This document shows positions 30,702 to 44,425 of a stretch of DNA of 64,000 bases, piece by piece. The DNA is from Minisyncoccota bacterium (GTDB taxonomy: Bacteria; Patescibacteriota; Minisyncoccia; Phycocordibacterales; UBA2100), in the NCBI GenBank assembly GCA_031291875.1, contig JARLIE010000218.1, positions 4,979 to 68,978 on the forward strand, given 5' to 3'. The notes beneath the pieces are model-generated. The model worked only from the letters and a program-made list of their open reading frames with translations. It was not told the DNA's origin and did not search any database. The stretch's first letter is position 1. Every line of letters starts with the position of its first letter. The position numbers and the translations under genes were made by a program.

Positions 30702-31520
30702 CTAGCGAAGCTGTTTGAGACGAGCAATACCGCCCCAAAGGCCGCCGATATCGCCGAGCTCGGAGTGCACGATCTCGGGAAGACTCGGGAACTTGCGCAT
30801 GATTTCGGCGAGGTGGAATTTGACGCGTTCGACGGGTATGCCAATTTCGTTGAACATCGAGCCGCCGAGCACTACTCGATCCGGCGACCAATGCAGGATC
30901 GTGTTGTGGAGACCGTACGCGAATGTTTGCGCGAGCTCTTCCCATACCGGCGAATCTTTTTCGATATGTTTCGGATTGATTTCATATTTTTCCTGGACGG
31001 CCTTGCCCGAAACAAGCTCCTCGAGCGTGCGAGGATTCCCGCCGATGAAAAGATATTGCCCGCCGATCTCGAAGCCGTATGCCGCAGGATCGATGACCCC
31101 GTCGACGATGCGGACGCCATTTACGCCGGTCGAAACCGTCGCGTACACGAGAATATGTGCGCCCTTGCCCGCTCCATAAAACGCCTCTCCCAGGCCGACT
31201 TGCGCCGTGTCGTTCAAAAGATGCACCGTCGTCGAAAGCGCGGCTTCAAGCTCTCGAGCAAATGGTTTTCCACGCCAATCTGGCAAGTGCGGCGACGTGA
31301 GGGGCGTCTTGCCATCGTCGGAAACAACGCCGGTAATATCGATAGCCATTGCGTCGATCTTTTCATTTCCCGCCATTTGGCGGCACGCGCGAATAATATC
31401 GGCGATGCCGTCTGCGTAATTCTTCGGTGTCTCCATGATGAGCGGGTCGCCCAATTTCTCAAGATCGCCGCTCTTCGCGATGCGCGTTTTCGTGCCTCCG
31501 ATGTCCGCTACGATGTACAT
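30702..31520 (-). CDS. ROK/BadF-type sugar kinase (probable glucokinase)
   Basis: ADIGGTKTR phosphate-1 motif. ASKHA fold length. Directly upstream of the PGI. Confidence 0.72.
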   Translation of the reverse strand: MYIVADIGGTKTRIAKSGDLEKLGDPLIMETPKNYADGIADIIRACRQMAGNEKIDAMAIDITGVVSDDGKTPLTSPHLPDWRGKPFARELEAALSTTVHLLNDTAQVGLGEAFYGAGKGAHILVYATVSTGVNGVRIVDGVIDPAAYGFEIGGQYLFIGGNPRTLEELVSGKAVQEKYEINPKHIEKDSPVWEELAQTFAYGLHNTILHWSPDRVVLGGSMFNEIGIPVERVKFHLAEIMRKFPSLPEIVHSELGDIGGLWGGIARLKQLR

Positions 31521-31523
31521 GGT

Positions 31524-32099
31524 TTATTCGACAACGAGAAGACCTCCGAAATCCGTTTTCCGCACCTCCTTGTAGTTCTTGTTGGGAAGAAGCGCGGGAG
31601 CGCCGTTTCGCTCGACGACATAGTACGCGAAGCCGTGCATCTTTTTGACCGCTTCGTAATCGGCGTGGCCGGGCATCGAGGCGGAGTCGTCCGGACCTTC
31701 GACGGGAGAATCGTCGACAAGCACCAGCCAGGTAGCACCGGTATTGGTCATCAAGTGTCCATATCCTGGCGGCATATACACGGAATCGCCCGCTTTCACA
31801 TTGATTGCCTTGAATTCTTCCACGACCGACGGGTCGCTCGAATCGACTAGCTTTTGTTGGAGCACCACACCTTCCCCAGAGACGAACCAGTAGGTCTCGT
31901 CTAAATTGCCGATGTGGTAGTGCCCATACGTTTTGATGTATTCGCCGCCGACGGTACCCGTTTCAAGCACTGTGATATTGCGTTTATTCTTCCCTCCTCG
32001 AATCATATAGTAATGAATCGACGGGCCCGAAGCGCTCGGGTCCAACAATACATCGGCCATCTTTTCCTGTGTTCGGGCTGCGTAGGGTTCGAATGTCAT
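31524..32099 (-). CDS. cupin-type (archaeal-type) glucose-6-phosphate isomerase
   Basis: Metal-binding signatures TYGHYH..E and PPGYGHLMTN, characteristic of cPGI. Confidence 0.72.
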   Translation of the reverse strand: MTFEPYAARTQEKMADVLLDPSASGPSIHYYMIRGGKNKRNITVLETGTVGGEYIKTYGHYHIGNLDETYWFVSGEGVVLQQKLVDSSDPSVVEEFKAINVKAGDSVYMPPGYGHLMTNTGATWLVLVDDSPVEGPDDSASMPGHADYEAVKKMHGFAYYVVERNGAPALLPNKNYKEVRKTDFGGLLVVE

Positions 32100-32157
32100 G
32101 GAACCATCTTACCACTTAAAAATGAAGAAAAAGTGCCGCTGAAAGGCCTCTATATTC

Positions 32158-34131
32158 CTACAAAGCAGGCAATTCCTTCATCTTTTTGAGGTACAAGAGC
32201 ACCGCATTGACGTAGGCGGCATGCGACCAGGCAAGCGGCGCGACGGAAACCTGTTCGCCTGTTTGCGGATGTTGCTGCTCGGATAGGACACCCGAGGGCT
32301 GGGCGTGCCGCACTACCCAATCAAACGTTTCGCGCACGCGCGCGAGGTCCGAGCGCTTCTTTGCACGCGCAATGAGGTATTCCGCGTACCAGAGCGTCGT
32401 CACAATCCATGGGTTGCCTTGAGACGGTCCTGGAATGCGGTAGTAGTCGTCGTCCTCAAAGCGAGCAATGCCGCCGGCGGAAATACCCTCACTCAACCGT
32501 ATGACGGTCGTTTGCCAGGCACGTTCAAGGCGTGGATCGTCCACCGGCAACATACCGAACGCAAATATGCCGTAGGCGCTCGAGGCATCCAGCGTGCGAT
32601 CGTACACGATGCCGTTTTTGGTATTCTCAAGCATGTTCACGAAATAACCGTTCTTTTCATCCCAAAGATTCTTAATGATCGCCTCGCGAATCTCGCTGGC
32701 CGCCGTTCGATACTTTTTTTCATTCTCCTTTTTTCCGACTGCCGCAGAGAGATCCGCTGCCGCGCTGAGCGCCGCGCTCGTTGCGGCGCAGGTGAACGTC
32801 AGTACGCCCCGCTTTCGCTCCCAAAGATCGTACGATGGCTGCGGCAAGCCGGTCGCCGGGTCGCGATAGTCGAGCATGAAATTCGCGGCTCGCTCGACGA
32901 TCGGTTCGTAATTCATTTCAAGCCATTCGATATCTTTCGCCGACTCGAATTCGCGCGCCGCCGTAAGCACGACGAGCGCCGTTTCGTCCTCCTGAATCGG
33001 CAGCTGCATTTCGCCATCTTTCCACCACGGATGCCAGGAGCTTCCGAGCGACATGTCGGGCAAATATTTGTGGAGGAAATACCCGTTTTTCGTAATCGTG
33101 TGTCTGCAAAATTCCAGGAATCGTTTGGCGATGACGGTGTCACCTGCCTCGATCAATACTTGGGCGATCATCGAGGCGTCTCGCGGCCAGATGTAGGAGT
33201 ACGTATCGAGCGCGAATTGCAAAATATCGGAATCGAGCGAGGCGATGATGCCGCCATCTTGATCGACGTGCGCGCGCATATACATAAGCGATTTTTTGAA
33301 CAGCGCTGCATGCTGATCGGGTAAATCTGCGAACTCGCGCGTCCCGAGCCATTCCTTCCAAAGGTCGTCCGCGTTGCGCACCAAATACTCGGCACTTTTC
33401 TTTATAATGTAGGTGTTCAATTCCTGCGCCTCCTGGATGAACTGTGCCGCCGCGATCCAATAGTGCGCGACGCGCACCTGTTGAGAATCGTACTCACCAT
33501 AGACGCCAAGCACCGAATCCGCCGGCCCATGCTCGATCGGATTCTTACTAAGTTGGCCGTCCTCGGCATCTTTGTGCGATCCCTCCTTGCCTTGGAAATT
33601 CATGCGGCCGGTCGCGAAGTCTTGAAACGGCTCATCGTCGAGCGTCGCGTTCATCAAAAATACGCGACGACCTTTGTAATGAATAATCGAATGTGAAATC
33701 GGATCGAAGTAGGCAGTGTCGCTGCCGTGGGATTTATATATCTCGTATTGATGCGCAAAGTACAACTTGATGGCGCGCTTTTGACCGAGGTTGCGTACTG
33801 TAATTCTTCGTATAAACACCGGCCTATCGCTATACACCATGTCGGTGAACGTAAGCTCGATACCGAGCTGTTCGTGCTTCGCAGTAATTGCGCTCTGAAG
33901 CGCCTCGTCTTCGCAACCCACCGTGATTTGCCATGCCGGATCGTCAGAGAGCCAGCTCAAACGACCATCGACCCAAATACCGACACGGTGCACATAATGG
34001 CCACGCACATGATCTTCTTGCCCGACATGGGGAAAGTAGATATCGCGAACAGCGCCGCGGTTATCGAGCGCAACGGCGAGCTGTCCATTGGAAAGAACAA
34101 TGGAACGGGACATACAAAAAGTATATCGCAT
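32158..34131 (-). CDS. glycoside hydrolase family 15 (glucoamylase/glucodextranase-like)
   Basis: N-terminal beta-sandwich plus (alpha/alpha)6 domain with YSYIWPRDAS. Confidence 0.85.
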   Translation of the reverse strand: MRYTFCMSRSIVLSNGQLAVALDNRGAVRDIYFPHVGQEDHVRGHYVHRVGIWVDGRLSWLSDDPAWQITVGCEDEALQSAITAKHEQLGIELTFTDMVYSDRPVFIRRITVRNLGQKRAIKLYFAHQYEIYKSHGSDTAYFDPISHSIIHYKGRRVFLMNATLDDEPFQDFATGRMNFQGKEGSHKDAEDGQLSKNPIEHGPADSVLGVYGEYDSQQVRVAHYWIAAAQFIQEAQELNTYIIKKSAEYLVRNADDLWKEWLGTREFADLPDQHAALFKKSLMYMRAHVDQDGGIIASLDSDILQFALDTYSYIWPRDASMIAQVLIEAGDTVIAKRFLEFCRHTITKNGYFLHKYLPDMSLGSSWHPWWKDGEMQLPIQEDETALVVLTAAREFESAKDIEWLEMNYEPIVERAANFMLDYRDPATGLPQPSYDLWERKRGVLTFTCAATSAALSAAADLSAAVGKKENEKKYRTAASEIREAIIKNLWDEKNGYFVNMLENTKNGIVYDRTLDASSAYGIFAFGMLPVDDPRLERAWQTTVIRLSEGISAGGIARFEDDDYYRIPGPSQGNPWIVTTLWYAEYLIARAKKRSDLARVRETFDWVVRHAQPSGVLSEQQHPQTGEQVSVAPLAWSHAAYVNAVLLYLKKMKELPAL

Positions 34132-34178
34132 AATCCGCGACCTTCACGAGACCGAAGCTCGATAAACAGGAGAACGTA

Positions 34179-35405
34179 TTAGACGCCTCGCTTTTCCAAA
34201 CGCAATTTCAGATCCTGGAGCGCATTCATGTACGCGATATGCGCGTCATAGGGCGATTCGTACGGCGAAAAGTACGCGTGCACGTCGCCGTCGCTAAACC
34301 ACTTGGTGCACATGTAGTAGAAGTGATCGGAGGTTTGGAGGCGACGCCAATCCTCAAGAAGCTTTAGATCGTTCGAAAGAAGAATCTTTTCCTCGAGCGC
34401 ATAGATGGCATCGAGCGCGGAGCGCTGCATAGGATTCCCCGTCCATGCAGTGAGGTCGCGGTCGGTGTCGGCCCAGGTGACCGTATGCGGCATATCGACT
34501 TCGTCCCGCACGTCATATGCGGCGATGACTTCTGAAGGTGTTTTGAAATCCATTCCGGGATTCTTTGCCAGCTCTTCTGGCAGCTTTTCGAGAAATTGAA
34601 AGATGCCGCTATCTTCCCACTGGTGTTCGCCGAACGTTTCGTAGTCCATAAAAAGATTCACCACATCCCCTTCTGCAACGCCAAGCCACTGCGCGTACTT
34701 TTCCGCCGAAAGCGGGAACTCGCTCCAGTCGCGAGAAGAGAAACGAAATGCAACGTCGTCGGAGAGACGGTAATTTTTCAAAAGGAGCCGTGCGTTTTGC
34801 GAACCCTTCGGTCGGTACACGTAGTTGGGTGATCGCCAGCCGAGTACCGGATCCCAACCTTCGGTAAGAATACCTGCATAGCCGTTGCGATCCGCCCATT
34901 CTCCGAGATCGTTGCGGTATGAAAGCTCAGTGTTGCGAAATACGCGAGGCCAAACGCCGAACAGCTTGCGGACCGTTTCCCGGTGCTTCGCGACCTGTCG
35001 CTCAAACTCCGAGGGCGAGTAGAAAAACGCGAGTGAGTGATAGTATGTTTCGCCAAGAACCTCGACGCGGCCGGTGTCGATCAATTCTTTGAAGAGCGCG
35101 ATCACTTCCGGCGTGTAGTGCTGCATCTGCTCAAGCGCAACGCCCGAGAACGAGAACGAGACTTTCATTTCTGGATGTCGATGCAGCAGCTCGATCAAGA
35201 GCTTCGTCGTCGGAATGTACGACTTGCGAGCTACTTTCTCGAGTATTTGGCGATTGTTCAACTTACTATCGCTGCGGTCGTTGAAATATTCCGGGTCATT
35301 ACCAATATCAAACACGCGATAATTCTTCACGCGATACGGCTGGTGCACCTGAAAATAAAAGCAGACCGACTTCATACGGTTTCGTAGCTCATTGTACACC
35401 CGCAA
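34179..35405 (-). CDS. glycoside hydrolase family 57 protein
   Basis: N-terminal FYFQVHQPYR GH57 signature. 408 aa. Confidence 0.8.
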   Translation of the reverse strand: MRVYNELRNRMKSVCFYFQVHQPYRVKNYRVFDIGNDPEYFNDRSDSKLNNRQILEKVARKSYIPTTKLLIELLHRHPEMKVSFSFSGVALEQMQHYTPEVIALFKELIDTGRVEVLGETYYHSLAFFYSPSEFERQVAKHRETVRKLFGVWPRVFRNTELSYRNDLGEWADRNGYAGILTEGWDPVLGWRSPNYVYRPKGSQNARLLLKNYRLSDDVAFRFSSRDWSEFPLSAEKYAQWLGVAEGDVVNLFMDYETFGEHQWEDSGIFQFLEKLPEELAKNPGMDFKTPSEVIAAYDVRDEVDMPHTVTWADTDRDLTAWTGNPMQRSALDAIYALEEKILLSNDLKLLEDWRRLQTSDHFYYMCTKWFSDGDVHAYFSPYESPYDAHIAYMNALQDLKLRLEKRGV

Positions 35406-36615
35406 AGAGCGTTTCTTGCAGGACGTTTTCCACCTTTCCGGCGGCGTCTTCCCAGGTAATAGCCTGAACTTCTTGTTGGCCGTTTTCGGAAAGCGTTTGT
35501 TTCAATCCCTTGTGGTGGACAACGCCGAGAATCTTGTTGGTCATTTCGTCGACATCCCAAAAATCGACCTTGAGCGCGTGGCGAACCTTTTCCGCAGCAC
35601 CGGATTGTTTCGAAAGCAAAACCGGCGTGCCGTTTTTCATAGCTTCAAGGGCAGTGATGCCAAACGGTTCGGAAACGGACGGCATAACGAAGAGATCTGC
35701 AGCTCGATACACCTCCGTGCGCTCATTACCGCGCAAAAAGCCGGTGAACAGCACCCGGTCGGAAATTCCCAGCTTTGCGGCCATATCCATAATCTGCCGT
35801 TCCATGTCGCCCGAGCCGGAGAGGAAGAAAACAACTTTCGGATCGCGGGACAAGACGCTCTTTGCGGCGCGCAAAAAGTAATCGGGACCCTTTTGCATCG
35901 TGATGCGGCCAAGGAAAAGAACGATGGAGTATCCGGCGGCCTTTAGGTGCTTGAGGCGCAGCGTATCGTTCGCGACACCCGGCTCGGTAGAGTCGTCGAT
36001 GCCGTTGTGCACCACTTTTATTTTCGATTCCGGTATTCCGTAAAAACGAACGATGAGATCTTTGGTGTACTGCGACACGGCAATCACGCGATCAGCGACC
36101 TCCATCCCCTCTTTTTCAATCGCGTAGACGTCCTGGTTCACTCCCATAGGACCGCCGCAGCGGTCGAAATCCGTCGCATGCACGTGTACGATAAGCGGTT
36201 TGCCGGAAAGACGCTTCGCCTCAATGCCGGCGCCAAACGAGAGCCAATCGTGGGCATAAATAATATCAAACTGATTTTCTTCTTCCTGTGCGATTTGGCC
36301 GCCGAGCAGCGCGTAGCGCTGCACTTCGCTAAAAAGATCGCTGCCGTAAATACCGATGTCGTGAACTGCGCGCGAATAGTTGCCGCTACCGATGTAGGGC
36401 CTAAGCGGCGAGTTTACCGCGCGGCCCTGGATTCCAGTCTCGGCAAAAACAAAACGCGCCCATGGCGCGCCGACCTGAATCTTTTTTGGCATGACGAATG
36501 TTATTTCAATACCCCGAGCCGCAAGCGCACGCGTAAGACCCTGACAAGCAACGCCTAAACCGCCGCTGTTGTGCGGTGGAAATTCCCAACCAAACATAAG
36601 CACGCGCGTTTTCAT
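35389..36615 (-). CDS. GT4-family glycosyltransferase (glycogen/alpha-glucan synthase-like)
   Basis: N-terminal FPPHNSGGLG. C-terminal GT-B EX7E-like region. Overlaps GH57 start by 17 nt. Confidence 0.8.
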   Translation of the reverse strand: MKTRVLMFGWEFPPHNSGGLGVACQGLTRALAARGIEITFVMPKKIQVGAPWARFVFAETGIQGRAVNSPLRPYIGSGNYSRAVHDIGIYGSDLFSEVQRYALLGGQIAQEEENQFDIIYAHDWLSFGAGIEAKRLSGKPLIVHVHATDFDRCGGPMGVNQDVYAIEKEGMEVADRVIAVSQYTKDLIVRFYGIPESKIKVVHNGIDDSTEPGVANDTLRLKHLKAAGYSIVLFLGRITMQKGPDYFLRAAKSVLSRDPKVVFFLSGSGDMERQIMDMAAKLGISDRVLFTGFLRGNERTEVYRAADLFVMPSVSEPFGITALEAMKNGTPVLLSKQSGAAEKVRHALKVDFWDVDEMTNKILGVVHHKGLKQTLSENGQQEVQAITWEDAAGKVENVLQETLFAGVQ

Positions 36616-36740
36616 CCGAATTGAGACTAGAAAAGTGGCCCCGCGTCAATCTTACACCCGCCTGTGGATAAGATTGTGGAAAAACATGTGGAAAACGGCC
36701 ATTTTTCTTACCCTAGCCCGTTTCGTGGTACCTTTTGTAG

Positions 36741-37493
36741 ATGGATTGCCCCAAAGCGGCGCTTTTTGACCTCGACGATACCTTAGCCGAGAGCTTTAAA
36801 GCCCCGTCAGAGGCTATGGTTGCCCGAGTCGCTCGCCTTGCCGAGCTCATGCCCGTTGCCATCCTTTCGGGCGCGAGTTACGAGCGCATGAAGGAGGAGA
36901 TTTTGGATCCCATCCTTGGCTTGGGAAAAACGGTACGGCTGTATGCCTTCCCCGACAGTGCATCTATTGCCTACACACTCGTGGACGACGCTTGGCAGGA
37001 GGCCTATTCGCTCGCGTTTACACCGGAGCAGCTTGAGCGTATTCGCTCGATCATTGAGGAGTGTGTTTCTCAGCACGACATAGCATCCGGCATGCCGTAC
37101 GAACCTCAAATCCTGCTGGAAAAGACTCAGGTGCGCTACGCAGCGCTCGGCCTCAATGCGACGGAAGCGGACAAGAACACCTGGGATCCCGATCAGGTGA
37201 AGCGACGTGCACTCAAGACGCTTCTCGACCAAAAGTTGCCGGAATGCGAGGTTTTGATCGGCGGACGAACGACCATCGATATCACCCGCAAAGGGGTCGA
37301 CAAAGCCTACGGCGTTCGCTGGTTCTCTGAGTACTTGCACATTCCTGCGCAGGAGATGTTCTACGTCGGCGACGCGCTCTATGAGGGCGGTAACGACCAG
37401 GTAGTTATCTCAACCGGCATACAAGCCCGACAAACGAGCGGCCCCGAAGAAACACTTTCTATCCTCGACGAACTGCTCGCCATCGCGCAGTAG
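36741..37493 (+). CDS. HAD-IIB hydrolase (phosphomannomutase-like), paralog of 23146-23871
   Basis: Motif I FDLDDTLA. C-terminal GGRTTIDI..FYVGDALYEGGND similar to PMM. Confidence 0.65.
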   Translation: MDCPKAALFDLDDTLAESFKAPSEAMVARVARLAELMPVAILSGASYERMKEEILDPILGLGKTVRLYAFPDSASIAYTLVDDAWQEAYSLAFTPEQLERIRSIIEECVSQHDIASGMPYEPQILLEKTQVRYAALGLNATEADKNTWDPDQVKRRALKTLLDQKLPECEVLIGGRTTIDITRKGVDKAYGVRWFSEYLHIPAQEMFYVGDALYEGGNDQVVISTGIQARQTSGPEETLSILDELLAIAQ

Positions 37494-37510: not shown

Positions 37511-37550
37511 CAAAACAGGCGGCTATTCGGCCGCCTGTTGTTTGTTGTCG
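37511..37550. terminator. bidirectional rho-independent terminator
   Basis: CAAAA-ACAGGCGGC-tattcg-GCCGCCTGT-TGTTTGTTGT. Confidence 0.5.
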
Positions 37551-37556
37551 TTTGAC

Positions 37557-38300
37557 CTAGGCTGCGCGGTACCTGCGCCACGCCCAGTAGATTGCCCCAA
37601 GCACAATCACGGCAAGCAGTGTCCACCATACCCACGCGGGAACGCCGTTGAACGCCTCGGCAACTGCCGCAGTCTGCGAGCTCGTAGCTACCAATGCGGC
37701 GGCCGCTTCCTGATTTGTGCCGGTCGCCGTTGTCGCGCTCGTCGTCGAACCCGACGTAGGGACAATAGCGTTATTCGGTACTGGCACCTGCGCCGTTCCC
37801 TGCGTTGCAGGAGTGGTCGGTGCTGATGCGTTCGCGACCGTTACCGTGACCGAACCTTGCGATCCGGAAAGCTCGTTGTTGCTACCGCCATCCAAAAGGA
37901 TCGAATTGCCGTCGACCGTGATAGTTGCCTTTCCCGCCTGCTTCGCGCGGAACGTGAGCGTTCCCAAAACGGTTGGGGAACTGAATCCCGCCGGATAGCC
38001 GCCTGTTTTAATGACGGTGCCGTTTGTGTTGTCCATAAGATCGTACCCGCTCTGGGTAACGGCGATCCACGTCGGCGCAAGCGAGAAGGCGGTCGCCGAG
38101 AGGATATTCGAGTTGAACTGAATGTTCGCGCTCGAAGTGTAGAGCGGCGTTCCGCTCGGGGTCGCCGTGACAGTGACCGTGAATGTCTGTCCTGCGACAA
38201 CAGTGACCGTCGAAGGTGTCAGCTGGATCGAAGCCGCAAGCGCGAGCGACGGGACCAGGAAGAGCGTGCCGATGACGAGATTTGTTACGAGTTTGTTCAT
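37557..38300 (-). CDS. cohesin-like domain protein with C-terminal transmembrane anchor
   Basis: Signal peptide. About 130-aa beta-rich module (LTPSTVTVVAGQTFTVTVTA...IQFNSNIL...) with cohesin-like pattern. T/S/A linker. C-terminal TM WVWWTLLAVIVLGAIYWAW plus RRYR stop-transfer. Start 2 nt after the stop of the dockerin protein. Confidence 0.5.
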   Translation of the reverse strand: MNKLVTNLVIGTLFLVPSLALAASIQLTPSTVTVVAGQTFTVTVTATPSGTPLYTSSANIQFNSNILSATAFSLAPTWIAVTQSGYDLMDNTNGTVIKTGGYPAGFSSPTVLGTLTFRAKQAGKATITVDGNSILLDGGSNNELSGSQGSVTVTVANASAPTTPATQGTAQVPVPNNAIVPTSGSTTSATTATGTNQEAAAALVATSSQTAAVAEAFNGVPAWVWWTLLAVIVLGAIYWAWRRYRAA

Positions 38301-38301
38301 A

Positions 38302-41300
38302 CTAGATAATCCAGTGGGTAAGGAAGTTGTTAAGGTCCAATAAGTTTACGGTGCCGTCGTTGTTGAAGTCTCCGGGGATATTCGAACCACTCTTGCCCCA
38401 GTTGGCGAACAGGATGTTGAGGTCGAAGATATCTACCTTGCCGTCGTGGTTGAGGTCGTACGGCGAGTAGCTCTGCCCGATCGGGCCGTTGCCGCCGCCG
38501 CTTCCTCCTGAATTTGAATTGGAGTTGGAATTGGAATTCGAGTTCGAATTCGAGTTGCTCTGAGCCGCGTACGTGAAGGTAATCTTTGCATCACTCGCGA
38601 TCGTTTCACCCGCCATGTCTTTGACCGAACCGGAAGGGATGGTCACCGTGACCGCGCCGTTTGCGGCCGGCGTCACATCGAACGTAACTGTCGTGCTAGC
38701 CGCGCTGATTTGAATGTTGCCGACAATACCATTACCTACTGTCAGATCACTCGTGTCGAAGCCTCGAATCGGCTGCGAGAATGTTGCCGTGATATGAATC
38801 GGATTGTCACTAATCGTAGTTGTCGTCGCAGAGGTCGAAGTGAGATTGACCGTCTCAGGACCCTCGACGATGACGGTGCGAGTCGCGTATCCCGTGTTAT
38901 TGCCACCGTCTGTTGCGGCATAGAGGATCGTGTGCGTGCCCGGAGTCGTGGTGCTCAGAAGGTTCGCCGTATTGAAGGCTGTTTCCGACGTGGTCGCCTC
39001 CCCGTCAAACGAAAGGCTGTAGCTGATACCGTTGGTCGGTGTGTCAGTCACGGTCACTCCCTGATCTAAGTAGCTCGCGCTGAATCCGATGTAGGTCGGG
39101 TTGTTGCCGACAATCGTGAGGACCGGCGTCGTCGTGTCTTTAATTGTGACCGTAACGGTTGCTGGCGCGGAGTCCCCTACTGCGTTGTGCGCTTCATACG
39201 TGAACGTGTCGGTTCCCGCATAGTTTGCATTCGGGGTGTACTTGATTTCATTGCCGACAACCGTCGCGCTGCCGTTACTTGGTGCACTCACTTTTGTTGC
39301 GTCGATGCTGGTCGCACCTGTGTCGTTCGCAAGCACGTCGATCGTCGCTGATTGGTTCATAGTAATGGTCGCGCTGTCGTTAACGGCTGTCGGGACTGTC
39401 GGCGGAGCTGACGAGGTGACTGCCGTTTGCTGACCGCCGTTGTACCACTGACCGTTCACGTGGGACCATGCGACGTAGTAGTAGGTTGTGCTGGGCGTAA
39501 TCGTCGCCATGTTGGCGTTGACGCCGCCGGTCGTAATGCCATTGGTGGTCACGAGCGAAAGCTGATCGGAGAACGGCGAGCTGGTACCGACCGCCGAGAG
39601 AACCGGGGTCGAATAGACGCCTGTGGGAATGTTGTTGGGGTTCGAGAAGTCGATCGAAGAGGTGGAGACCCAGAACGATTCTGCATCCGCCGTGACCCCA
39701 CCGTTGGTTGCGTTCAATGTCGCGTCGACGCTCGAGAGATTCGTTGCCGCATTTGTCGTCACACCCGGAATTCCTACCGCCGGGCCGTTACCGGTCGTAA
39801 AGCTTTGTTCTGCGCCCGGGTACCAGGTGCCACCGACATTCGCCCATGCGACGTAGTAGTACGTGGTGTTAGGTTGGATTGTCGGAAGATTGCTCGGGAT
39901 TCCGTGGGTTGTCGCGATCGAGAGTTGATCGGAGAACGGCGTGTTGGCAGAGACCGTATTGGTAACCGGAGTCGAAACAACGCCGGAAGGAATGTTAGTC
40001 GGATTGGAGGTGTCGATGGGCGAAGTGGTGGAGATCCAGAACGAAACCTGACTCGCATCACTTTGACCTACCGTGCCGTTGAGCTGCGCATCGTACGGCG
40101 TGACATTGCTGGCAAGATCGGTCGTAACGGTTGCGTCCGACGTCGTCATGAAGGTGTCGACACTGCCCGGGTACCAGATGCCGTTGGATTGAATCCAGGC
40201 GACAAAGTAGTACTTCGTGTTCGATACAAGACCAGAAAGCGCCTTACTGAACTGACCGCCAGCGCTTGTTGCCCCAAGACCACTGTCGTGCGTCCAACCG
40301 GAAGCCGGGAACTCACTGGAGCCCGGGTCCGTGCCGGCACTAAGCGTGCCGCTGATCGGCGTTGTACCCCACCAGAAGGAGGTGTTGTCGGCGTTCATCG
40401 ATCCGACGGTTCCGTTTGCTATCGCACTGCTGCTGCCAACACTTGTTGCAGCGTCAGTAGTGACGGTGGGAACCGAACCGTTCGAGGTTGTGAATGTTTC
40501 AACACTGCCCGGGTACCATGTACCGCCGATCTGAACCCATGCAACGAAGTAATACTGGGTGTTCGGTGAGAGTGGCTTTATCGATTCGCTGAAGTTTGCG
40601 TTCGCTGAAGCATTGCTGAGTCCGCTGTCGTGCTGCCAGCCGGAAGCCGGAAATTCTGTTGAACCCGGATCAGTTCCTGCCACGAGTGACATTGTAATCG
40701 GCGTGGTTCCCCACCAGAATGAGGTGTTGTCCGCGGCCGTCGCGCCGTCAGTGCCGTTAAGGGTCGCGTCGACTGTGTTTACCGGATTTGCGGGGTCAGT
40801 GATTACCTTTGCGTTGTTCGGATCAAATACGACGCACTGTGTGTCGCCATTTTGCGGAACGAAGGTAAGTTCTTGATTGTCGTTTGTTCCCGAGGTGTCT
40901 CCATCGCCCTTGCAATACAAACCAAGAGGCGCGTTTGCGGGAAGCTGATTGCCGCTCGCATCCGTTTCCGCGATGAGGTAGCGGCCGCTTGCCGGAACGG
41001 AAAGTGTGAGAACACCGTTTGCATCTGTAGCGCCGCCGAGCGTGAACGGTTGTCCGAGTTCAGGATACGGACTATTCGCATCAATCTGAGTTCCGTGAAC
41101 ATAACCGATGTGTACACCTTGTTCTGGAGTACAACCTACCGGAACTGTGCCGCCGATGCCACTTTGCGCGCGCGTTACAACCGTAGTAGCGGGGCACGTA
41201 TATGCAGTAACGTCGATGTTGCCATTGATTGTTGAAGACGTGAGATCGACGTTTGAGATGATGAAACCTTTTCCTGCAGTTGAGGGAGCAGCGGAAACAC

Positions 41301-43638
41301 TGCCACCTTGGCGGAAGATCAGAGAATCGACTGTTGGAACCTTGTTGCCATTTCCGGCCTGCTCGGGATCGAAGCGGTAGTAGTCCTCCCAAGTCGTGCC
41401 AGTGTGAACGAGATTGCCGTCAATGTAGATCTTTACGATGTCATTTCCTGCGCCGTCCACGAAGTCGATCGAAAACTTAATAGTGTGAGGCTGCGTGCGT
41501 GTCAGAGTCGCGATGTCGGTTTCGACAAATTCATTCGGTGTGCCGATAGAAGCCTGACCGCCCGGAACGTCATCGAAGAAGACGTGGATGCCATCCGTCT
41601 GGTCTTCGAAACGAAGATAACTCATGCGCGAACCAGAACCATTGTCAGGCGAAACCGAAAGCGCGAGTCCGCTTTGGACACTCGGCATCACCGACGCCAA
41701 ATCGAATTGGGCCTCGAAGTGATTCTGACGAGTGCCGCTCGAAGAGCCATTGCTGACCGCCGTGCTTTCTCCCGCCTGATTTGTAAGAGCCGGAGAGAAG
41801 GTCTGGTCGCCAAAGCCGCCGGAAGTTACCGCATTTGAGACGCGAAGTACTTTGCAGCCAAGCGTGGTGAATCCGTACGTGTTGTCAACGATCGCCTGGT
41901 CGTACGGACCGGTAGCACTCCAACCTTGCTGACCATTCACTGAGCCGTCGGTAAAGGTGTTGAAGGAACCCGCTCCGGAGCAGCTCGGGATTTGATACGG
42001 TTCGAATTCATACTTCGTCGCCGTTGATCCCGTGCCGATCGTGAAATCACTGATATCCGCCGTGTAACCGTTTGGGCCTGGTTCGCCAACACGAATACCC
42101 AGCCAGCCGTCGGCAGGAAGAACACGTGCATTCGGGTAATCAGCAAGAATTGAGGACCACGCGCGAGCTGTAGTTCCTGAGACGCCTGTCTTGCCGGCGT
42201 CAGGACCGACATCCGTGACCGGCCAAGTGCCGCCCGAGTATTCCCACTTCGCATTGCCGTTGTTGAGGGCGTCCCAAGTTTGCCACGTGTTCTGCGTAAC
42301 CGTGCCGTTGTCGTTCGGCTCGTACACCAAGCGTCTCTGCCACGTATTCGAACCATCAAAATCGACATTGAAGTTGAGGAACGGTACCTCCGTCGCGCTG
42401 ATACCGGCACCACTGTGCGAGTATTCACTGAAGGAAAGTGCGGTAATCGTATTGAGTGGTGTGCCAGCGAATTGGTACGTAGCAATATTCTTACGGTCGT
42501 TCGAAGAACCGAGCGAGAACTCAATACTGCCGCTGCCGTTCGGAGAGGTTGCAGGTCCGGAAACAAACGAACCGAGCGTGTTGTCGACCGTGTCATTCGT
42601 ATCGTTGTACATAAACCACTTATTTGCACCGTCCGCTGCGACAGTCGCAGGATTCGAAGAAGAATTGTCGAGATCACTAAAGTGAATGATGGCGACTGAG
42701 GTGTTGGTGACTGCTTGGAAGGTGACGCCGAAAGCTTGAGCTATCGGGCTAGCGGCATTGTAGTTCTGGTCGCCTGGATTACTCGCGTTCACCGTGCATG
42801 TGCCGACCGTGAAGAGGTGGATGGTGCTACCCGTGACTGAGCACGCCCCCGAAGCAGTAAAGATGTTCGAAGTCGTGGCGCTCTTGGTTACATAGGAATC
42901 GACACTAAAGTCAGGTATGCCGAGGGTTCGGTCAGGAAGCGTACCGAACGAGAACGTCTGATTCACCTTATTGATGGAGGCTGTTGCGGTCGCCTGAGGG
43001 GTGCCGAGAGTGTAGTTGGAAGCAGCGGATCCGCCGAGCGTAAGGCCGCTAACGTCGACAGTCTTGCCGGTGCCAGCATTAGAATCCGTAAAATTGCCGA
43101 CCGCACTGCCCGTGGAGAGGGTTACGTGATCGAAAAGAAGTACGCCATGCAGTTGTGCATGAGTTACGTCGATCGTCGCTACTGCGGTACCGTCATACGG
43201 TTTATCGCTCGCGGTGATACCTGTCACGCTCAGTGTTTTTTGCGTGACAGTGAGGTTGGCAGAACCGGTGTCGCCCACATATGCAGGGCTGCCAAAGCTA
43301 CCGAAAAATGCGCCTCCAATATAGTTGACGTGCACACCAACCTTAGTGAGTGACGTCAGCTGAACATTCTGAAGCGTGGCGACACCGTGTGAGTCAGTAT
43401 TCGCAGCTCCGAGAGGAAACCCGTTGAACGTGAAGAATACAGTCTTGTTCGCGACTGGTACTCCGCCCGGATTGGTCGTAAGGGTCGCCTGGAGTGTGAC
43501 CGAACCGCCGTAGGTCGCCGTTTCGGGAGCAACCGTGAGGGTCGTGTTAGTTGCTGCTAATGCAAACGCAGGTACGAACATGCTGAAAGCCGCAACAATT
43601 CCCGCTGCGAGGCCCGCAAGCACATGAGGAGTCTTCAT
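38302..43638 (-). CDS. giant (1778 aa) secreted multi-repeat surface protein with C-terminal type-I dockerin
   Basis: Signal peptide. MBG/YDG-like N-terminal repeats. About 5 tandem ~105-aa FN3-like repeats (FWWGTTPI...YYFVAW..GTWYPG). Cadherin/Ig-like module. (SN)8 linker. C-terminal DLNHDGKVDIFDLN...DFNNDGTVNLLDLN calcium-binding dockerin duplicated segment. Confidence 0.85.
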   Translation of the reverse strand: MKTPHVLAGLAAGIVAAFSMFVPAFALAATNTTLTVAPETATYGGSVTLQATLTTNPGGVPVANKTVFFTFNGFPLGAANTDSHGVATLQNVQLTSLTKVGVHVNYIGGAFFGSFGSPAYVGDTGSANLTVTQKTLSVTGITASDKPYDGTAVATIDVTHAQLHGVLLFDHVTLSTGSAVGNFTDSNAGTGKTVDVSGLTLGGSAASNYTLGTPQATATASINKVNQTFSFGTLPDRTLGIPDFSVDSYVTKSATTSNIFTASGACSVTGSTIHLFTVGTCTVNASNPGDQNYNAASPIAQAFGVTFQAVTNTSVAIIHFSDLDNSSSNPATVAADGANKWFMYNDTNDTVDNTLGSFVSGPATSPNGSGSIEFSLGSSNDRKNIATYQFAGTPLNTITALSFSEYSHSGAGISATEVPFLNFNVDFDGSNTWQRRLVYEPNDNGTVTQNTWQTWDALNNGNAKWEYSGGTWPVTDVGPDAGKTGVSGTTARAWSSILADYPNARVLPADGWLGIRVGEPGPNGYTADISDFTIGTGSTATKYEFEPYQIPSCSGAGSFNTFTDGSVNGQQGWSATGPYDQAIVDNTYGFTTLGCKVLRVSNAVTSGGFGDQTFSPALTNQAGESTAVSNGSSSGTRQNHFEAQFDLASVMPSVQSGLALSVSPDNGSGSRMSYLRFEDQTDGIHVFFDDVPGGQASIGTPNEFVETDIATLTRTQPHTIKFSIDFVDGAGNDIVKIYIDGNLVHTGTTWEDYYRFDPEQAGNGNKVPTVDSLIFRQGGSVSAAPSTAGKGFIISNVDLTSSTINGNIDVTAYTCPATTVVTRAQSGIGGTVPVGCTPEQGVHIGYVHGTQIDANSPYPELGQPFTLGGATDANGVLTLSVPASGRYLIAETDASGNQLPANAPLGLYCKGDGDTSGTNDNQELTFVPQNGDTQCVVFDPNNAKVITDPANPVNTVDATLNGTDGATAADNTSFWWGTTPITMSLVAGTDPGSTEFPASGWQHDSGLSNASANANFSESIKPLSPNTQYYFVAWVQIGGTWYPGSVETFTTSNGSVPTVTTDAATSVGSSSAIANGTVGSMNADNTSFWWGTTPISGTLSAGTDPGSSEFPASGWTHDSGLGATSAGGQFSKALSGLVSNTKYYFVAWIQSNGIWYPGSVDTFMTTSDATVTTDLASNVTPYDAQLNGTVGQSDASQVSFWISTTSPIDTSNPTNIPSGVVSTPVTNTVSANTPFSDQLSIATTHGIPSNLPTIQPNTTYYYVAWANVGGTWYPGAEQSFTTGNGPAVGIPGVTTNAATNLSSVDATLNATNGGVTADAESFWVSTSSIDFSNPNNIPTGVYSTPVLSAVGTSSPFSDQLSLVTTNGITTGGVNANMATITPSTTYYYVAWSHVNGQWYNGGQQTAVTSSAPPTVPTAVNDSATITMNQSATIDVLANDTGATSIDATKVSAPSNGSATVVGNEIKYTPNANYAGTDTFTYEAHNAVGDSAPATVTVTIKDTTTPVLTIVGNNPTYIGFSASYLDQGVTVTDTPTNGISYSLSFDGEATTSETAFNTANLLSTTTPGTHTILYAATDGGNNTGYATRTVIVEGPETVNLTSTSATTTTISDNPIHITATFSQPIRGFDTSDLTVGNGIVGNIQISAASTTVTFDVTPAANGAVTVTIPSGSVKDMAGETIASDAKITFTYAAQSNSNSNSNSNSNSNSNSGGSGGGNGPIGQSYSPYDLNHDGKVDIFDLNILFANWGKSGSNIPGDFNNDGTVNLLDLNNFLTHWII
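38510..38557. repeat. hexanucleotide microsatellite (GARTTN)8 encoding the (SN)n linker
   Basis: gaattt gaattg gagttg gaattg gaattc gagttc gaattc gagttg, read directly. Confidence 0.7.
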
Positions 43639-44032: not shown

Positions 44033-44425
44033 ATGAAAACGTTTGCCCAAGCAGTGCAAAACAGACTTCCCCGCTTTGTTCGCGTGGCGATTGATCGCAT
44101 AAGCAGGGATGTTCGTACCCAACCGAGCAAACTACTCATTGCCAGCGTATCCGCGGTGGCAGCCCTCCTTGTATTCAATATAGAGGTCGCCCTCATCTGG
44201 TGGCTCTTCCTTTTGTTCCTCATGTATAAGTGGAATACCCGCATTATCGAGACTCTCGCAGGACTTGCACTCCTGGACGTGGTAGTTCTCTTCGGTATTG
44301 GTCGCCTCACCTGGGCGGTAAACTCACTGGTCTTCGCGTACTTCCTAATCGTCATGGCAGGTACGCTCCGTTTCGTCCCCTATTTGCGAGATTCACATTT
44401 TGGGAAACCAAAACAGTTTTCCTAA
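44033..44425 (+). CDS. hypothetical 3-4 TM membrane protein
   Basis: 130-aa ORF with hydrophobic helices. Preceded by a 390-bp AT-rich intergenic region. Confidence 0.45.
   Translation: MKTFAQAVQNRLPRFVRVAIDRISRDVRTQPSKLLIASVSAVAALLVFNIEVALIWWLFLLFLMYKWNTRIIETLAGLALLDVVVLFGIGRLTWAVNSLVFAYFLIVMAGTLRFVPYLRDSHFGKPKQFS

Follow-up and report, generated by a model that had tools for sequence, protein, structure and literature searches.

The evidence presented here points to a two-gene, non-cellulosomal cohesin-dockerin surface display cassette in a CPR bacterium (Patescibacteria/Minisyncoccota, 'Pacebacteria'), a reading to which we give a probability of about 0.7. In the 64-kb stretch of DNA analysed (the window), the gene of a 1778-aa, predicted secreted multi-domain surface protein, recognised from its ORF and Pfam domains (the cargo; 38302..43638, minus strand), is directly followed by the gene of a 247-aa protein (the anchor; 37557..38300, minus strand; NCBI MDR3571837.1), which consists of a predicted signal peptide, a cohesin, a linker, a TM helix and a basic tail. 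A preliminary description of this DNA had pointed out the gene pair, and both ORFs lie exactly where it placed them, with the lengths that it gave. It had also suspected a small-genome lineage, and the NCBI name of the anchor, 'cohesin domain-containing protein [Candidatus Pacebacteria bacterium]', places the lineage in the CPR. The junction of the two genes (38298..38304, minus strand) reads ...CAC TGG ATT ATC TAG t ATG AAC, that is, TAG-t-ATG without an obvious Shine-Dalgarno sequence; a single base separates the cargo stop from the anchor start, which puts the A of the ATG 2 nt past the final base of the stop codon, as described before. This 1-nt spacer is consistent with translational coupling. 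An 11-bp G+C-rich hairpin found by a scan for terminator-like sites (37514..37539, unstranded), between the convergent anchor gene and a PMM-like gene, is likely the end of the two-gene transcript, though it is a consensus match only, and the region has just as many such sites as are expected from shuffled sequence.

In our model, both proteins would be exported via Sec. The C-terminal helix would keep the 247-aa protein in the cytoplasmic membrane, its basic tail on the inner side, and a flexible linker of ~63 residues rich in T/S/A/P would hold the single cohesin off the membrane. The 1778-aa cargo would be freed from the membrane once its signal peptide is cleaved, and then caught again, without a covalent bond, as the dockerin at its C-terminus, loaded with Ca2+, inserts into the cohesin. 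The short gene spacing would couple translation, so that socket and plug are made together.

The cohesin module occupies residues 23-156 of the anchor (37833..38234, minus strand; Pfam, AF2 and Foldseek). It matched Pfam PF00963 with 31.8 bits against a cut-off of 24.1 (E=2e-7, residues 25-153) over the full model (positions 1-139 of 139), and the cohesin-like pattern seen earlier is thus borne out. Sequence searches against the PDB were nearly empty, since phmmer of the 247-aa protein gave nothing meaningful and a profile of five anchor sequences retrieved cohesins only at E~2-4; therefore a comparison of folds was needed. The structure prediction proposed for the 247-aa protein gave a cohesin fold with pLDDT 95-99, and the first 34 Foldseek matches of this model were all cohesins, with E down to 6.8e-10. 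With 2368 clusters at 50% identity (E<=1e-3), the anchor family is large, and its best 150 representatives are almost all 200-290 aa long with a single module. Only 64 of 143 anchor relatives reach E<=1e-3 against PF00963, indicating that the anchor cohesins are a divergent subfamily; with more than half of these relatives escaping the Pfam cohesin model, much of the family is probably annotated as hypothetical.

The rest of the anchor also agrees with the preliminary description, which had listed a signal peptide, a beta module, a linker and a C-terminal membrane anchor. The predicted signal peptide, read from the sequence (residues 1-22, ...SLALA|AS; 38235..38300, minus strand), forms a helix at residues 2-13 in the AF2 model, and A22 and A23 flanking the putative cleavage site are invariant among the five closest homologues. 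The T/S/A/P-rich linker (residues 157-219; 37644..37832, minus strand) has low pLDDT (56-66), with a short helix predicted at residues 212-219, and includes a juxtamembrane SSQTAAVAEAF, a motif that is conserved across the family. It is followed by the C-terminal transmembrane helix (residues 220-241; 37578..37643, minus strand; AF2 helix at residues 222-246, Kyte-Doolittle 19-residue mean 1.94) and by the basic tail RRYRAA (37560..37577, minus strand), which would be cytoplasmic according to the positive-inside rule. A C-terminal TM segment was found in 139 of the 143 family members, and at least two K/R within 12 aa past it in 134. The C-terminal sequence of the anchor shows no LPXTG, and SSQTAAVAEAFNGVP precedes its TM segment; judging from this, the anchor has a hydrophobic segment and a basic tail yet does not appear to be of the sortase (LPXTG) type. 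Many anchor relatives have (L/F)GTG(S/N) at the pre-TM position.

The dockerin module (residues 1723-1778; 38305..38472, minus strand; Pfam, profile and AF2) reaches the C-terminus of the cargo. It comprises two tandem segments, each a 12-residue loop with a helix after it, in line with the duplicated ~22-residue segments that define type I dockerins; the predicted Ca loops are DLNHDGKVDIFD (residues 1728-1739; 38422-38457, minus strand) and DFNNDGTVNLLD (residues 1757-1768; 38335-38370, minus strand), which share D1, N3, D5, D/N9 and D12 and are each followed by LN..(F/L)...W. Across 20 aligned tails, the loop pattern D-x-N-x-D-G-x-V-(D/N)-x-x-D and the helix after it are conserved. Against Pfam Dockerin_1 (PF00404), the window tail itself scored 17.1 bits (E=0.0063), under the cut-off of 22.9, whereas five of ten orthologous cargos passed it with 25.1, 27, 31.3, 33.7 and 45.2 bits; thus, in the proposed check with this model, the window tail alone stays under the threshold and half of the orthologous ones pass it. 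In the PDB, solved dockerins ranked first (2y3n_B, E=5e-7) for a profile built from three orthologous tails together with that of the window. In an AF2 model of a cohesin+dockerin chimera (5 cohesin and 40 dockerin alignment rows), both domains were confident, and the pTM of 0.53 is uninformative on docking. The dockerin part had pLDDT 94-97, and both of its helices (chimera residues 232-240 and 261-269) begin at position 10 of the 12-residue loop, as in EF-hand/F-hand geometry. In two fold searches, cohesins took up the match lists, and solved dockerins did not come up as direct matches. The C-terminal segment is accordingly predicted to have dockerin-like geometry, and the earlier assignment to type-I dockerins is supported, with the window tail itself sub-threshold. 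There were 198 dockerin relatives; of the matches listed, the majority have PF00404, and the name 'dockerin type I domain-containing protein' is given to some. These profile relatives are fragments of <=111 aa only, from which full-length cargos are not visible.

By several measures, on the level of sequence and structure prediction, the C-terminal segment of the cargo is dockerin-like. One could still imagine that the cohesin-fold protein is a stand-alone membrane-anchored Ig-like adhesin or wall-spanning spacer, and that the cargo tail is a Ca-stabilised module or a glycan-binding element. We regard this as quite improbable. The cohesin-dockerin interpretation as a whole is supported, neither of the two refuting conditions named in the preliminary description having come true, with the PF00963 match and the cohesin fold on one side and the dockerin-like geometry on the other.

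Upstream of the dockerin, the cargo is a long mosaic. A predicted signal peptide was read from the sequence at residues 1-28 (...PAFALA|AT; 43555..43638, minus strand), and every complete orthologous cargo has an N-terminus similar to this signal-like segment. A YDG domain follows at residues 132-215 (42994..43245, minus strand; PF18657, E=1.1e-18, 67.7 bits), and then ~725 aa without a detectable family (residues 216-940; 40819..42993, minus strand; no PDB or Pfam match), within which residues 323-547 have a homologous stretch in the cargo of another locus, L013 (44% identity, E=2e-44, BLAST). Residues ~945-1410 (39409..40806, minus strand) form four tandem repeats of ~115 aa, as aligned by MAFFT, each terminating in YY(F/Y)VAW..G.WY.G; a self-BLAST of the giant protein did not show them, and they emerged once the YY(F/Y)VAW motif was taken as a fixed point. 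They matched the FN3-like family Pur_ac_phosph_N weakly (E=2.4e-4, under the cut-off) and are probably FN3-like beta sandwiches. Three Ig-like domains come next: a bacterial Ig/cadherin-like domain (residues 1415-1499; 39142..39396, minus strand; Big_9 E=3.1e-15, Cadherin_5 E=6.4e-6), a sub-threshold bacterial surface Ig-like domain (residues 1508-1591; 38866..39117, minus strand; PF16403, E=3e-4, 21.2 bits against a cut-off of 27), whose family clearly exceeds the cut-off in three other cargos (L015, L021 and L008), and a sub-threshold Big_5-like Ig domain (residues 1598-1689; 38572..38847, minus strand; PF13205, E=8.3e-4, 20.5 bits against 23.6). A flexible (SN)n-GGSGGGNGPIGQ linker (residues 1694-1722; 38473..38559, minus strand) leads to the dockerin, and nearly all orthologous cargos have a Gly-rich linker at this place. 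The multi-repeat composition proposed earlier is therefore partly retained: the Ig/cadherin-like domains are present, the supposed MBG domain is the YDG domain, and the FN3-like character of the four repeats goes with a sub-threshold match only. In its domain content the cargo looks like a fibrillar adhesin or a binding protein, and may have an adhesive function.

In Pfam and PDB searches, the 1778-aa cargo gave no match to a glycoside hydrolase, to a CBM or to any further catalytic family. This bears on the idea of a minimal cellulosome-like system for extracellular polysaccharide degradation, in which the cargo would be carbohydrate-active and held at the surface. Such a role might be suggested by the polysaccharide deacetylase in one orthologous cargo (L021), by the CHB_HEX_C_1/Fn3_assoc modules in several, and by the carbohydrate metabolism genes that neighbour the pair in the window (GH57, GT4/5, GH15, GPI and ROK). 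However, these neighbours resemble cytoplasmic glycogen/starch-type metabolism, and their synteny is limited to L003, L006 and L030, the closest relatives, and is not family-wide. Moreover, the 64 kb contain only one cohesin and lack a scaffoldin; neither a multi-cohesin scaffoldin nor dockerin-bearing glycoside hydrolases with CBMs, the criteria of a cellulosome, were found. A cellulosome-like system is thus highly unlikely, and the single cohesin, the cargo free of detectable GH or CBM and the TM anchor agree with the non-cellulosomal character claimed at the outset.

Comparison with 28 distinct related loci, nearly all of them patescibacterial, shows that the same two-gene cassette recurs across the CPR radiation with very different cargos. 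A dockerin-ending gene lies directly upstream of the cohesin gene in 26 of the 28 loci, with spacers of -25 to +23 nt between cargo and anchor genes (27 related loci), and no neighbouring gene of the pair is shared from locus to locus. What stays the same is the dockerin tail with its Gly-rich linker and the cohesin anchor, and the cargo varies from a domain of ~130 aa to proteins of ~1900 aa (cargo lengths 175 to 1946 aa), the passengers being mosaic with varied Pfam content. In L025, the cohesin has neither a TM anchor nor an upstream dockerin. In L028, cohesin and dockerin are fused in one ORF, which at the sequence level is a Rosetta-stone type link between both modules. The socket of some lineages is joined to, or stands before, a second protein with a beta-sandwich, a TM segment and a cytoplasmic domain, through which binding at the surface might be relayed into the cell. 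Apparent second cohesin paralogues downstream in L010 and L014 were rejected as a different family, joined by BLAST clustering via fused proteins.

From the synteny in 26 of 28 loci, the strongest evidence at hand, and the one fusion, we infer that the window cohesin binds the window dockerin. Alternatively, both modules may be real, yet the dockerin may bind a different cohesin or another kind of receptor, whether this sits on the host, on a sibling cell or on some other protein of its own cell, and the adjacency may reflect co-regulated envelope genes. That the binding of the adjacent pair is deduced from gene arrangement leaves room for this possibility, as do the two dockerin genes ahead of one cohesin gene in L014, from which it follows that the stoichiometry is not strictly 1:1. 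The same may be said of the dockerin-like fragments from other phyla, e.g. Phycisphaerae, found among the relatives, and of SEML1_0315, an essential dockerin protein of the saccharibacterium Southlakia, which we considered as the same cassette and rejected, as it has no adjacent cohesin gene. On the other hand, six-frame HMM scans found one cohesin and one dockerin in the whole 64-kb window, and these adjoin; together with the adjacency kept in 26 of 28 loci over many CPR lineages, where nothing else nearby is conserved, this indicates that the pairing is not due to chance. With gaps that are very short or overlapping and with the fusion in L028, a partner elsewhere is unlikely, and we prefer the dedicated cohesin-dockerin pair.

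No description of such a cassette was found in the searchable literature on cohesin or dockerin in CPR, Patescibacteria, Parcubacteria or Saccharibacteria. The preliminary view that it is essentially undescribed is right for the literature searched, but the NCBI pipeline already labels the cohesin domain. Among known systems, Clostridium thermocellum has the single-cohesin anchoring proteins OlpA and OlpC (PDB 3ul4 and 4dh2). In this cellulosome producer they are wall-anchored by SLH domains and receive many dockerin enzymes, and to our knowledge they are not encoded beside one dedicated cargo. In contrast, the window anchor has a C-terminal TM helix and a cargo gene that appears translationally coupled, and its sequence identity to them is only 11-14%. 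Non-cellulosomal modules are those of the Clostridium perfringens glycoside hydrolases NanJ and NagJ (PDB 2vo8, 2w1n, 2jh2, 2o4e and 2ozn) and of Archaeoglobus fulgidus (2xdh). These cohesin and dockerin modules are parts of soluble enzymes, which they connect with each other; we know of no membrane-anchored socket or conserved socket-plug operon in these systems. Ruminococcus flavefaciens ScaE with the adhesin CttA (2zf9 and 4iu2/4iu3) belongs to an elaborate cellulosome, and ScaE is sortase-anchored and binds X-dockerin modules (type III), whereas the window anchor lacks a visible LPXTG in its C-terminal sequence and no search identified an X-module. The curated NCBIfam family NF041540, 'GC-type dockerin domain-anchored protein', is alike, by name only, in anchoring by a C-terminal dockerin outside cellulosomes; its match to cargo residues 1728-1776 is weak (16.3 bits against a cut-off of 29), and the window cargo is not a member.

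Finally, CPR/Patescibacteria are ultra-small, mostly uncultivated and a large share of bacterial diversity, and a central question, still open, is by what means they adhere to other cells and interact with them. The cassette may have a role in host attachment. More tentatively, it may be one case of a radiation-wide 'plug-and-display' system, in which one conserved socket would accept interchangeable dockerin-tagged cargos, such as adhesins and wall-modifying enzymes, swapped by recombination at the Gly-rich linker and setting host attachment and specificity, as a principal host-interaction apparatus of these episymbionts. The cassette would also extend the cohesin-dockerin principle to a third mode of anchoring, by a C-terminal TM helix as opposed to SLH domains or sortase, and to a 1:1 operon-encoded arrangement of socket and plug. 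The conserved two-gene display module should be a testable handle, as its modules are small and easily expressed and binding assays are routine, and the list of cargos across genomes would serve as a catalogue of candidate host-interaction proteins.

The cargo gene for a giant protein of 1778 aa (38302..43638, minus strand) and the anchor gene for a small protein of 247 aa (37557..38300, minus strand), both read as ORFs of the window, are separated by a single base at the stop/start junction (...ATC TAG t ATG...), and the final codons of the cargo gene show no purine-rich Shine-Dalgarno sequence. A non-coding stretch of about 390 nt borders the pair on its upstream side, and a hydrophobic 130-aa ORF (44033-44425, plus strand) diverges from the cargo gene across the same intergenic region. 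Downstream, a G+C-rich hairpin of 11 bp (37514-37539) is common to the pair and a convergent PMM-like gene, but it is only suggestive as a terminator because the number of terminator-like sites in this region equals the shuffle expectation. Six-frame HMM scans of the 64-kb window detected exactly one dockerin and one cohesin. The surrounding genes, for GH57, GT4/5, PMM-like, GH15, GPI, ROK and DsbD-thioredoxin proteins, belong to carbohydrate metabolism and redox and are unrelated to the cassette of cargo and anchor genes. The carbohydrate-metabolism block (30702-37493) comprises a ROK kinase, a cupin-type GPI, GH15, GH57, a glycogen-synthase-like GT4/GT5 and a PMM-like HAD gene. Synteny of the GH57, GT4/GT5 and PMM-like genes with the cassette extends to three related loci (L003, L006, L030) and not to remoter ones.

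With regard to the anchor, the Pfam model PF00963 (Cohesin) aligned along its full length (1-139 of 139) with residues 25-153; the score of 31.8 bits (E=2e-7) exceeds the curated cut-off of 24.1 bits. PDB sequence searches with this protein were uninformative. The structure predicted from an alignment of 143 relatives (A4) showed a mean pLDDT of 86.8, with an all-beta module at 95-99 over residues 21-160 and helices at residues 2-13 (signal peptide), 212-219 and 222-246 (transmembrane, TM). In a Foldseek search of the PDB with this model, the top 34 matches were all cohesins (best E=6.8e-10), including those of Clostridium acetobutylicum CohA2, C. cellulolyticum, A. cellulolyticus, C. thermocellum OlpA/OlpC, C. 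perfringens and A. fulgidus. These results uphold the cohesin-like module proposed in the preliminary description, and its architecture of a signal-like N-terminus, a single beta module, a T/S-type linker and a C-terminal TM segment was likewise seen in sequence and predicted structure. After the cohesin, a T/S/A/P linker of 63 residues leads to a hydrophobic helix (residues 220-241) and the tail RRYRAA. The C-terminal TM segment is present in 139 of the 143 family members, and at least two K/R directly follow it in 134. With an N-terminal signal-like sequence ending in ALA|AS and a positive-inside tail, the anchor is probably a type-I membrane protein whose cohesin lies outside. The family alignment also retains a juxtamembrane element, (S/T)Q.AA(V/A)(G/A), to which many members add (L/F)GTG(S/N) abutting the hydrophobic segment and the basic tail. 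The corresponding site in the window (37644-37700, residues ~200-219 of the anchor) reads SSQTAAVAEAFNGVP and lacks the LGTG part. This layout of motif, TM segment and basic tail recalls a sorting signal, yet it is not LPXTG.

The dockerin at the C-terminus of the cargo required evidence from relatives. On its own sequence it is only suggestive, as Pfam Dockerin_1 matched residues 1727-1769 with E=0.0063 and 17.1 bits, under the cut-off of 22.9 bits; with relatives added, its identity is solid. Upstream of each of the four closest cohesin homologues lies a gene whose tail aligns with the cargo tail, and D1, N3, D5, G6 and D12 are invariant in both loops of all these tails. A four-sequence profile of such tails placed solved dockerins on top (2y3n_B with E=5e-7, then CelS, Cel9, Doc435 and others) with alignments covering both repeats, while generic EF-hand proteins ranked only lower. 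Moreover, five of ten orthologous cargos passed the Dockerin_1 cut-off (25-45 bits), and a 20-tail profile gathered 198 relatives; among those listed, PF00404 is present in most and the name 'dockerin type I domain-containing protein' in some. In an AF2 model of a cohesin-dockerin chimera, in which both domains were confident, the dockerin segment reached pLDDT 94-97, and each of its two helices begins at the tenth position of its 12-residue loop in EF/F-hand-like geometry. Thus the claimed type-I dockerin stands on the four-tail profile, the orthologues and the modelled geometry, but not on the Pfam score of the window tail. The two repeats are nearly symmetric (consensus D.N.DG.VDILDFN.LM..W), which is compatible with a dual binding mode.

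One genome per species was scanned, and 26 loci with cohesin relatives were found. All but two of these carry labels of the Patescibacteria radiation (CPR), namely Paceibacterota, Saccharibacteria, Kazan, Nealson-, Doudna-, Lipton-, Nomura-, Brenner- and Kaiserbacteria, Minisyncoccia and a complete UBA2103 genome; several loci bear the Saccharibacteria name. Taking the scan loci, four exact-protein contigs and the window together, the upstream DNA could be read at 28 distinct loci. At 26 of these, a gene ending in a dockerin lies immediately upstream of the cohesin gene; the dockerin ends 0-7 residues ahead of the stop, and a spacer of -25 to +23 nt lies between that stop and the cohesin start. 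This recurrence is the chief new evidence for the pair as a conserved unit. All complete upstream proteins have an N-terminal signal-like sequence, and in nearly all a Gly-rich linker precedes the dockerin. The passengers, the variable part of these proteins, are mosaic and range from 175 to 1946 aa, with CHB_HEX_C_1/Fn3_assoc, Ig-like, HYR, DUF5018 and one polysaccharide deacetylase as Pfam content. Clustering of neighbouring ORFs revealed no further gene conserved across the loci.

Several loci vary this arrangement. In L028 (6558-8540), a putative natural fusion that might also be an assembly or frameshift artefact, both modules are in one 661-aa ORF, in the order of FN3-like repeats, Gly linker, degenerate dockerin, cohesin lacking a signal peptide of its own, and C-terminal TM anchor. 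The sole exception to the cassette is L025 (7839-8405; Nomurabacteria GW2011_GWD2_36_14), where a 188-aa cohesin protein has a signal peptide but neither a TM anchor nor an upstream dockerin gene. In L014 (5137-7876), tandem dockerin-ending genes of 238 and 673 aa precede a single cohesin gene, therefore one cohesin may serve more than one cargo. An extra large surface-protein gene is found upstream of a small dockerin gene in L019 (4427-7261), L022 (4785-6632), L023 (4773-6608) and L029 (4889-6709); these extra proteins have homologues in the passengers of L006 and L015, and the dockerin HMM detected no dockerin in them. A second module follows the cohesin gene in L010 (8675-9460) and L014 (8960-9844) and is fused to it in L017 (7869-9224) and in proteins P0075 and P0141. 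It consists of a beta-sandwich-like segment (..APGE.LP..VKL.NFG....VDV...Y.I...), a TM helix and a conserved domain of about 90 aa (EP.DYSD.P..ER.FFEL.SD...) predicted to be cytoplasmic. This module, absent from the window, may be an accessory component joining the cohesin to the cell interior. L010 (contig CAYJWY010000030.1) is a typical cassette labelled 'uncultured Gammaproteobacteria bacterium', while the other named loci are all CPR; the contig may be mis-binned, mislabelled or the result of transfer.

The remainder of the cargo begins with a predicted signal peptide, and the protein is probably exported. Pfam detected YDG at residues 132-215 (E=1e-18), Big_9/Cadherin_5 at 1415-1499 and sub-threshold Ig-like domains at 1508-1591 and 1598-1689; an (SN)n-Gly linker precedes the dockerin. 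Four tandem repeats of about 115 aa each (residues ~945-1410) matched only weakly, to an FN3-like family. The cargo gave no hit to an MBG domain, a glycoside hydrolase or a CBM. Of the repeats assigned earlier, MBG was not borne out, Ig/cadherin-like domains were found, and FN3-like is probable. About 725 aa (residues 216-940; 40819-42993) matched no Pfam family and, by sequence, no solved structure; residues 323-547 are common to the L013 cargo. If the cargo binds or catalyses anything, this region would be the most likely site.

The simplest reading is a socket-and-plug display, in which the membrane-anchored cohesin would catch the secreted dockerin-tagged cargo, a putative adhesin, at the cell surface by calcium-dependent binding, and translational coupling would let socket and plug be made together. 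Gene order, module identities, the build of the anchor and synteny are established by the data; export, topology, the binding of this particular pair through calcium and an adhesive role of the cargo are inferred. Such a cassette would work like the single-cohesin anchoring proteins OlpA/OlpC of C. thermocellum, and it is also similar to the arrangement of ScaE with the adhesin CttA in R. flavefaciens; in structure it comes closest to the cohesins that C. perfringens and A. fulgidus use outside cellulosomes. It differs from all of these, and from the cellulosome, in its TM-helix anchor and in being a conserved 1:1 operon with hypervariable cargo. The system is not a cellulosome, because it has a single cohesin and lacks a scaffoldin, GH and CBM, which together with the adjoining dockerin genes agrees with the non-cellulosomal two-gene pair first proposed. 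Within the tests made, it is also anchored neither by a sortase nor by SLH domains, because no LPXTG was seen in the C-terminal sequence of the anchor.

The pair had also been thought undescribed in this lineage. The cassette was not found in the literature searched on cohesin or dockerin in CPR, Patescibacteria, Parcubacteria or Saccharibacteria, though most subscription journals were outside its scope and a prior account is possible. The nearest mention is a single sentence in Wang et al. (2023; PMC10633639) on a Southlakia protein that is essential and carries a dockerin domain; its gene has no cohesin gene adjacent. On the other hand, the NCBI pipeline already labels the cohesin domain of the window: the anchor is MDR3571837.1, 'MAG: cohesin domain-containing protein [Candidatus Pacebacteria / Paceibacterota bacterium]', encoded on a contig of 93,994 bp. 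The source organism is a CPR bacterium, and Pacebacteria belong to the phylum Minisyncoccota.

Finally, when 1.84 billion cluster representatives were searched with a profile of the cohesin module, 2368 relatives reached E<=1e-3, of which 783 reached <=1e-10 and 275 <=1e-30. Nearly all of the best 150 of the 2368 show the architecture seen in the window, with a length of 200-290 aa and the module near residues 22-160. Only 64 of the 143 aligned family members reach E<=1e-3 with PF00963, so that more than half of this cohesin family is probably annotated as hypothetical protein, and a dedicated model for the family would help.
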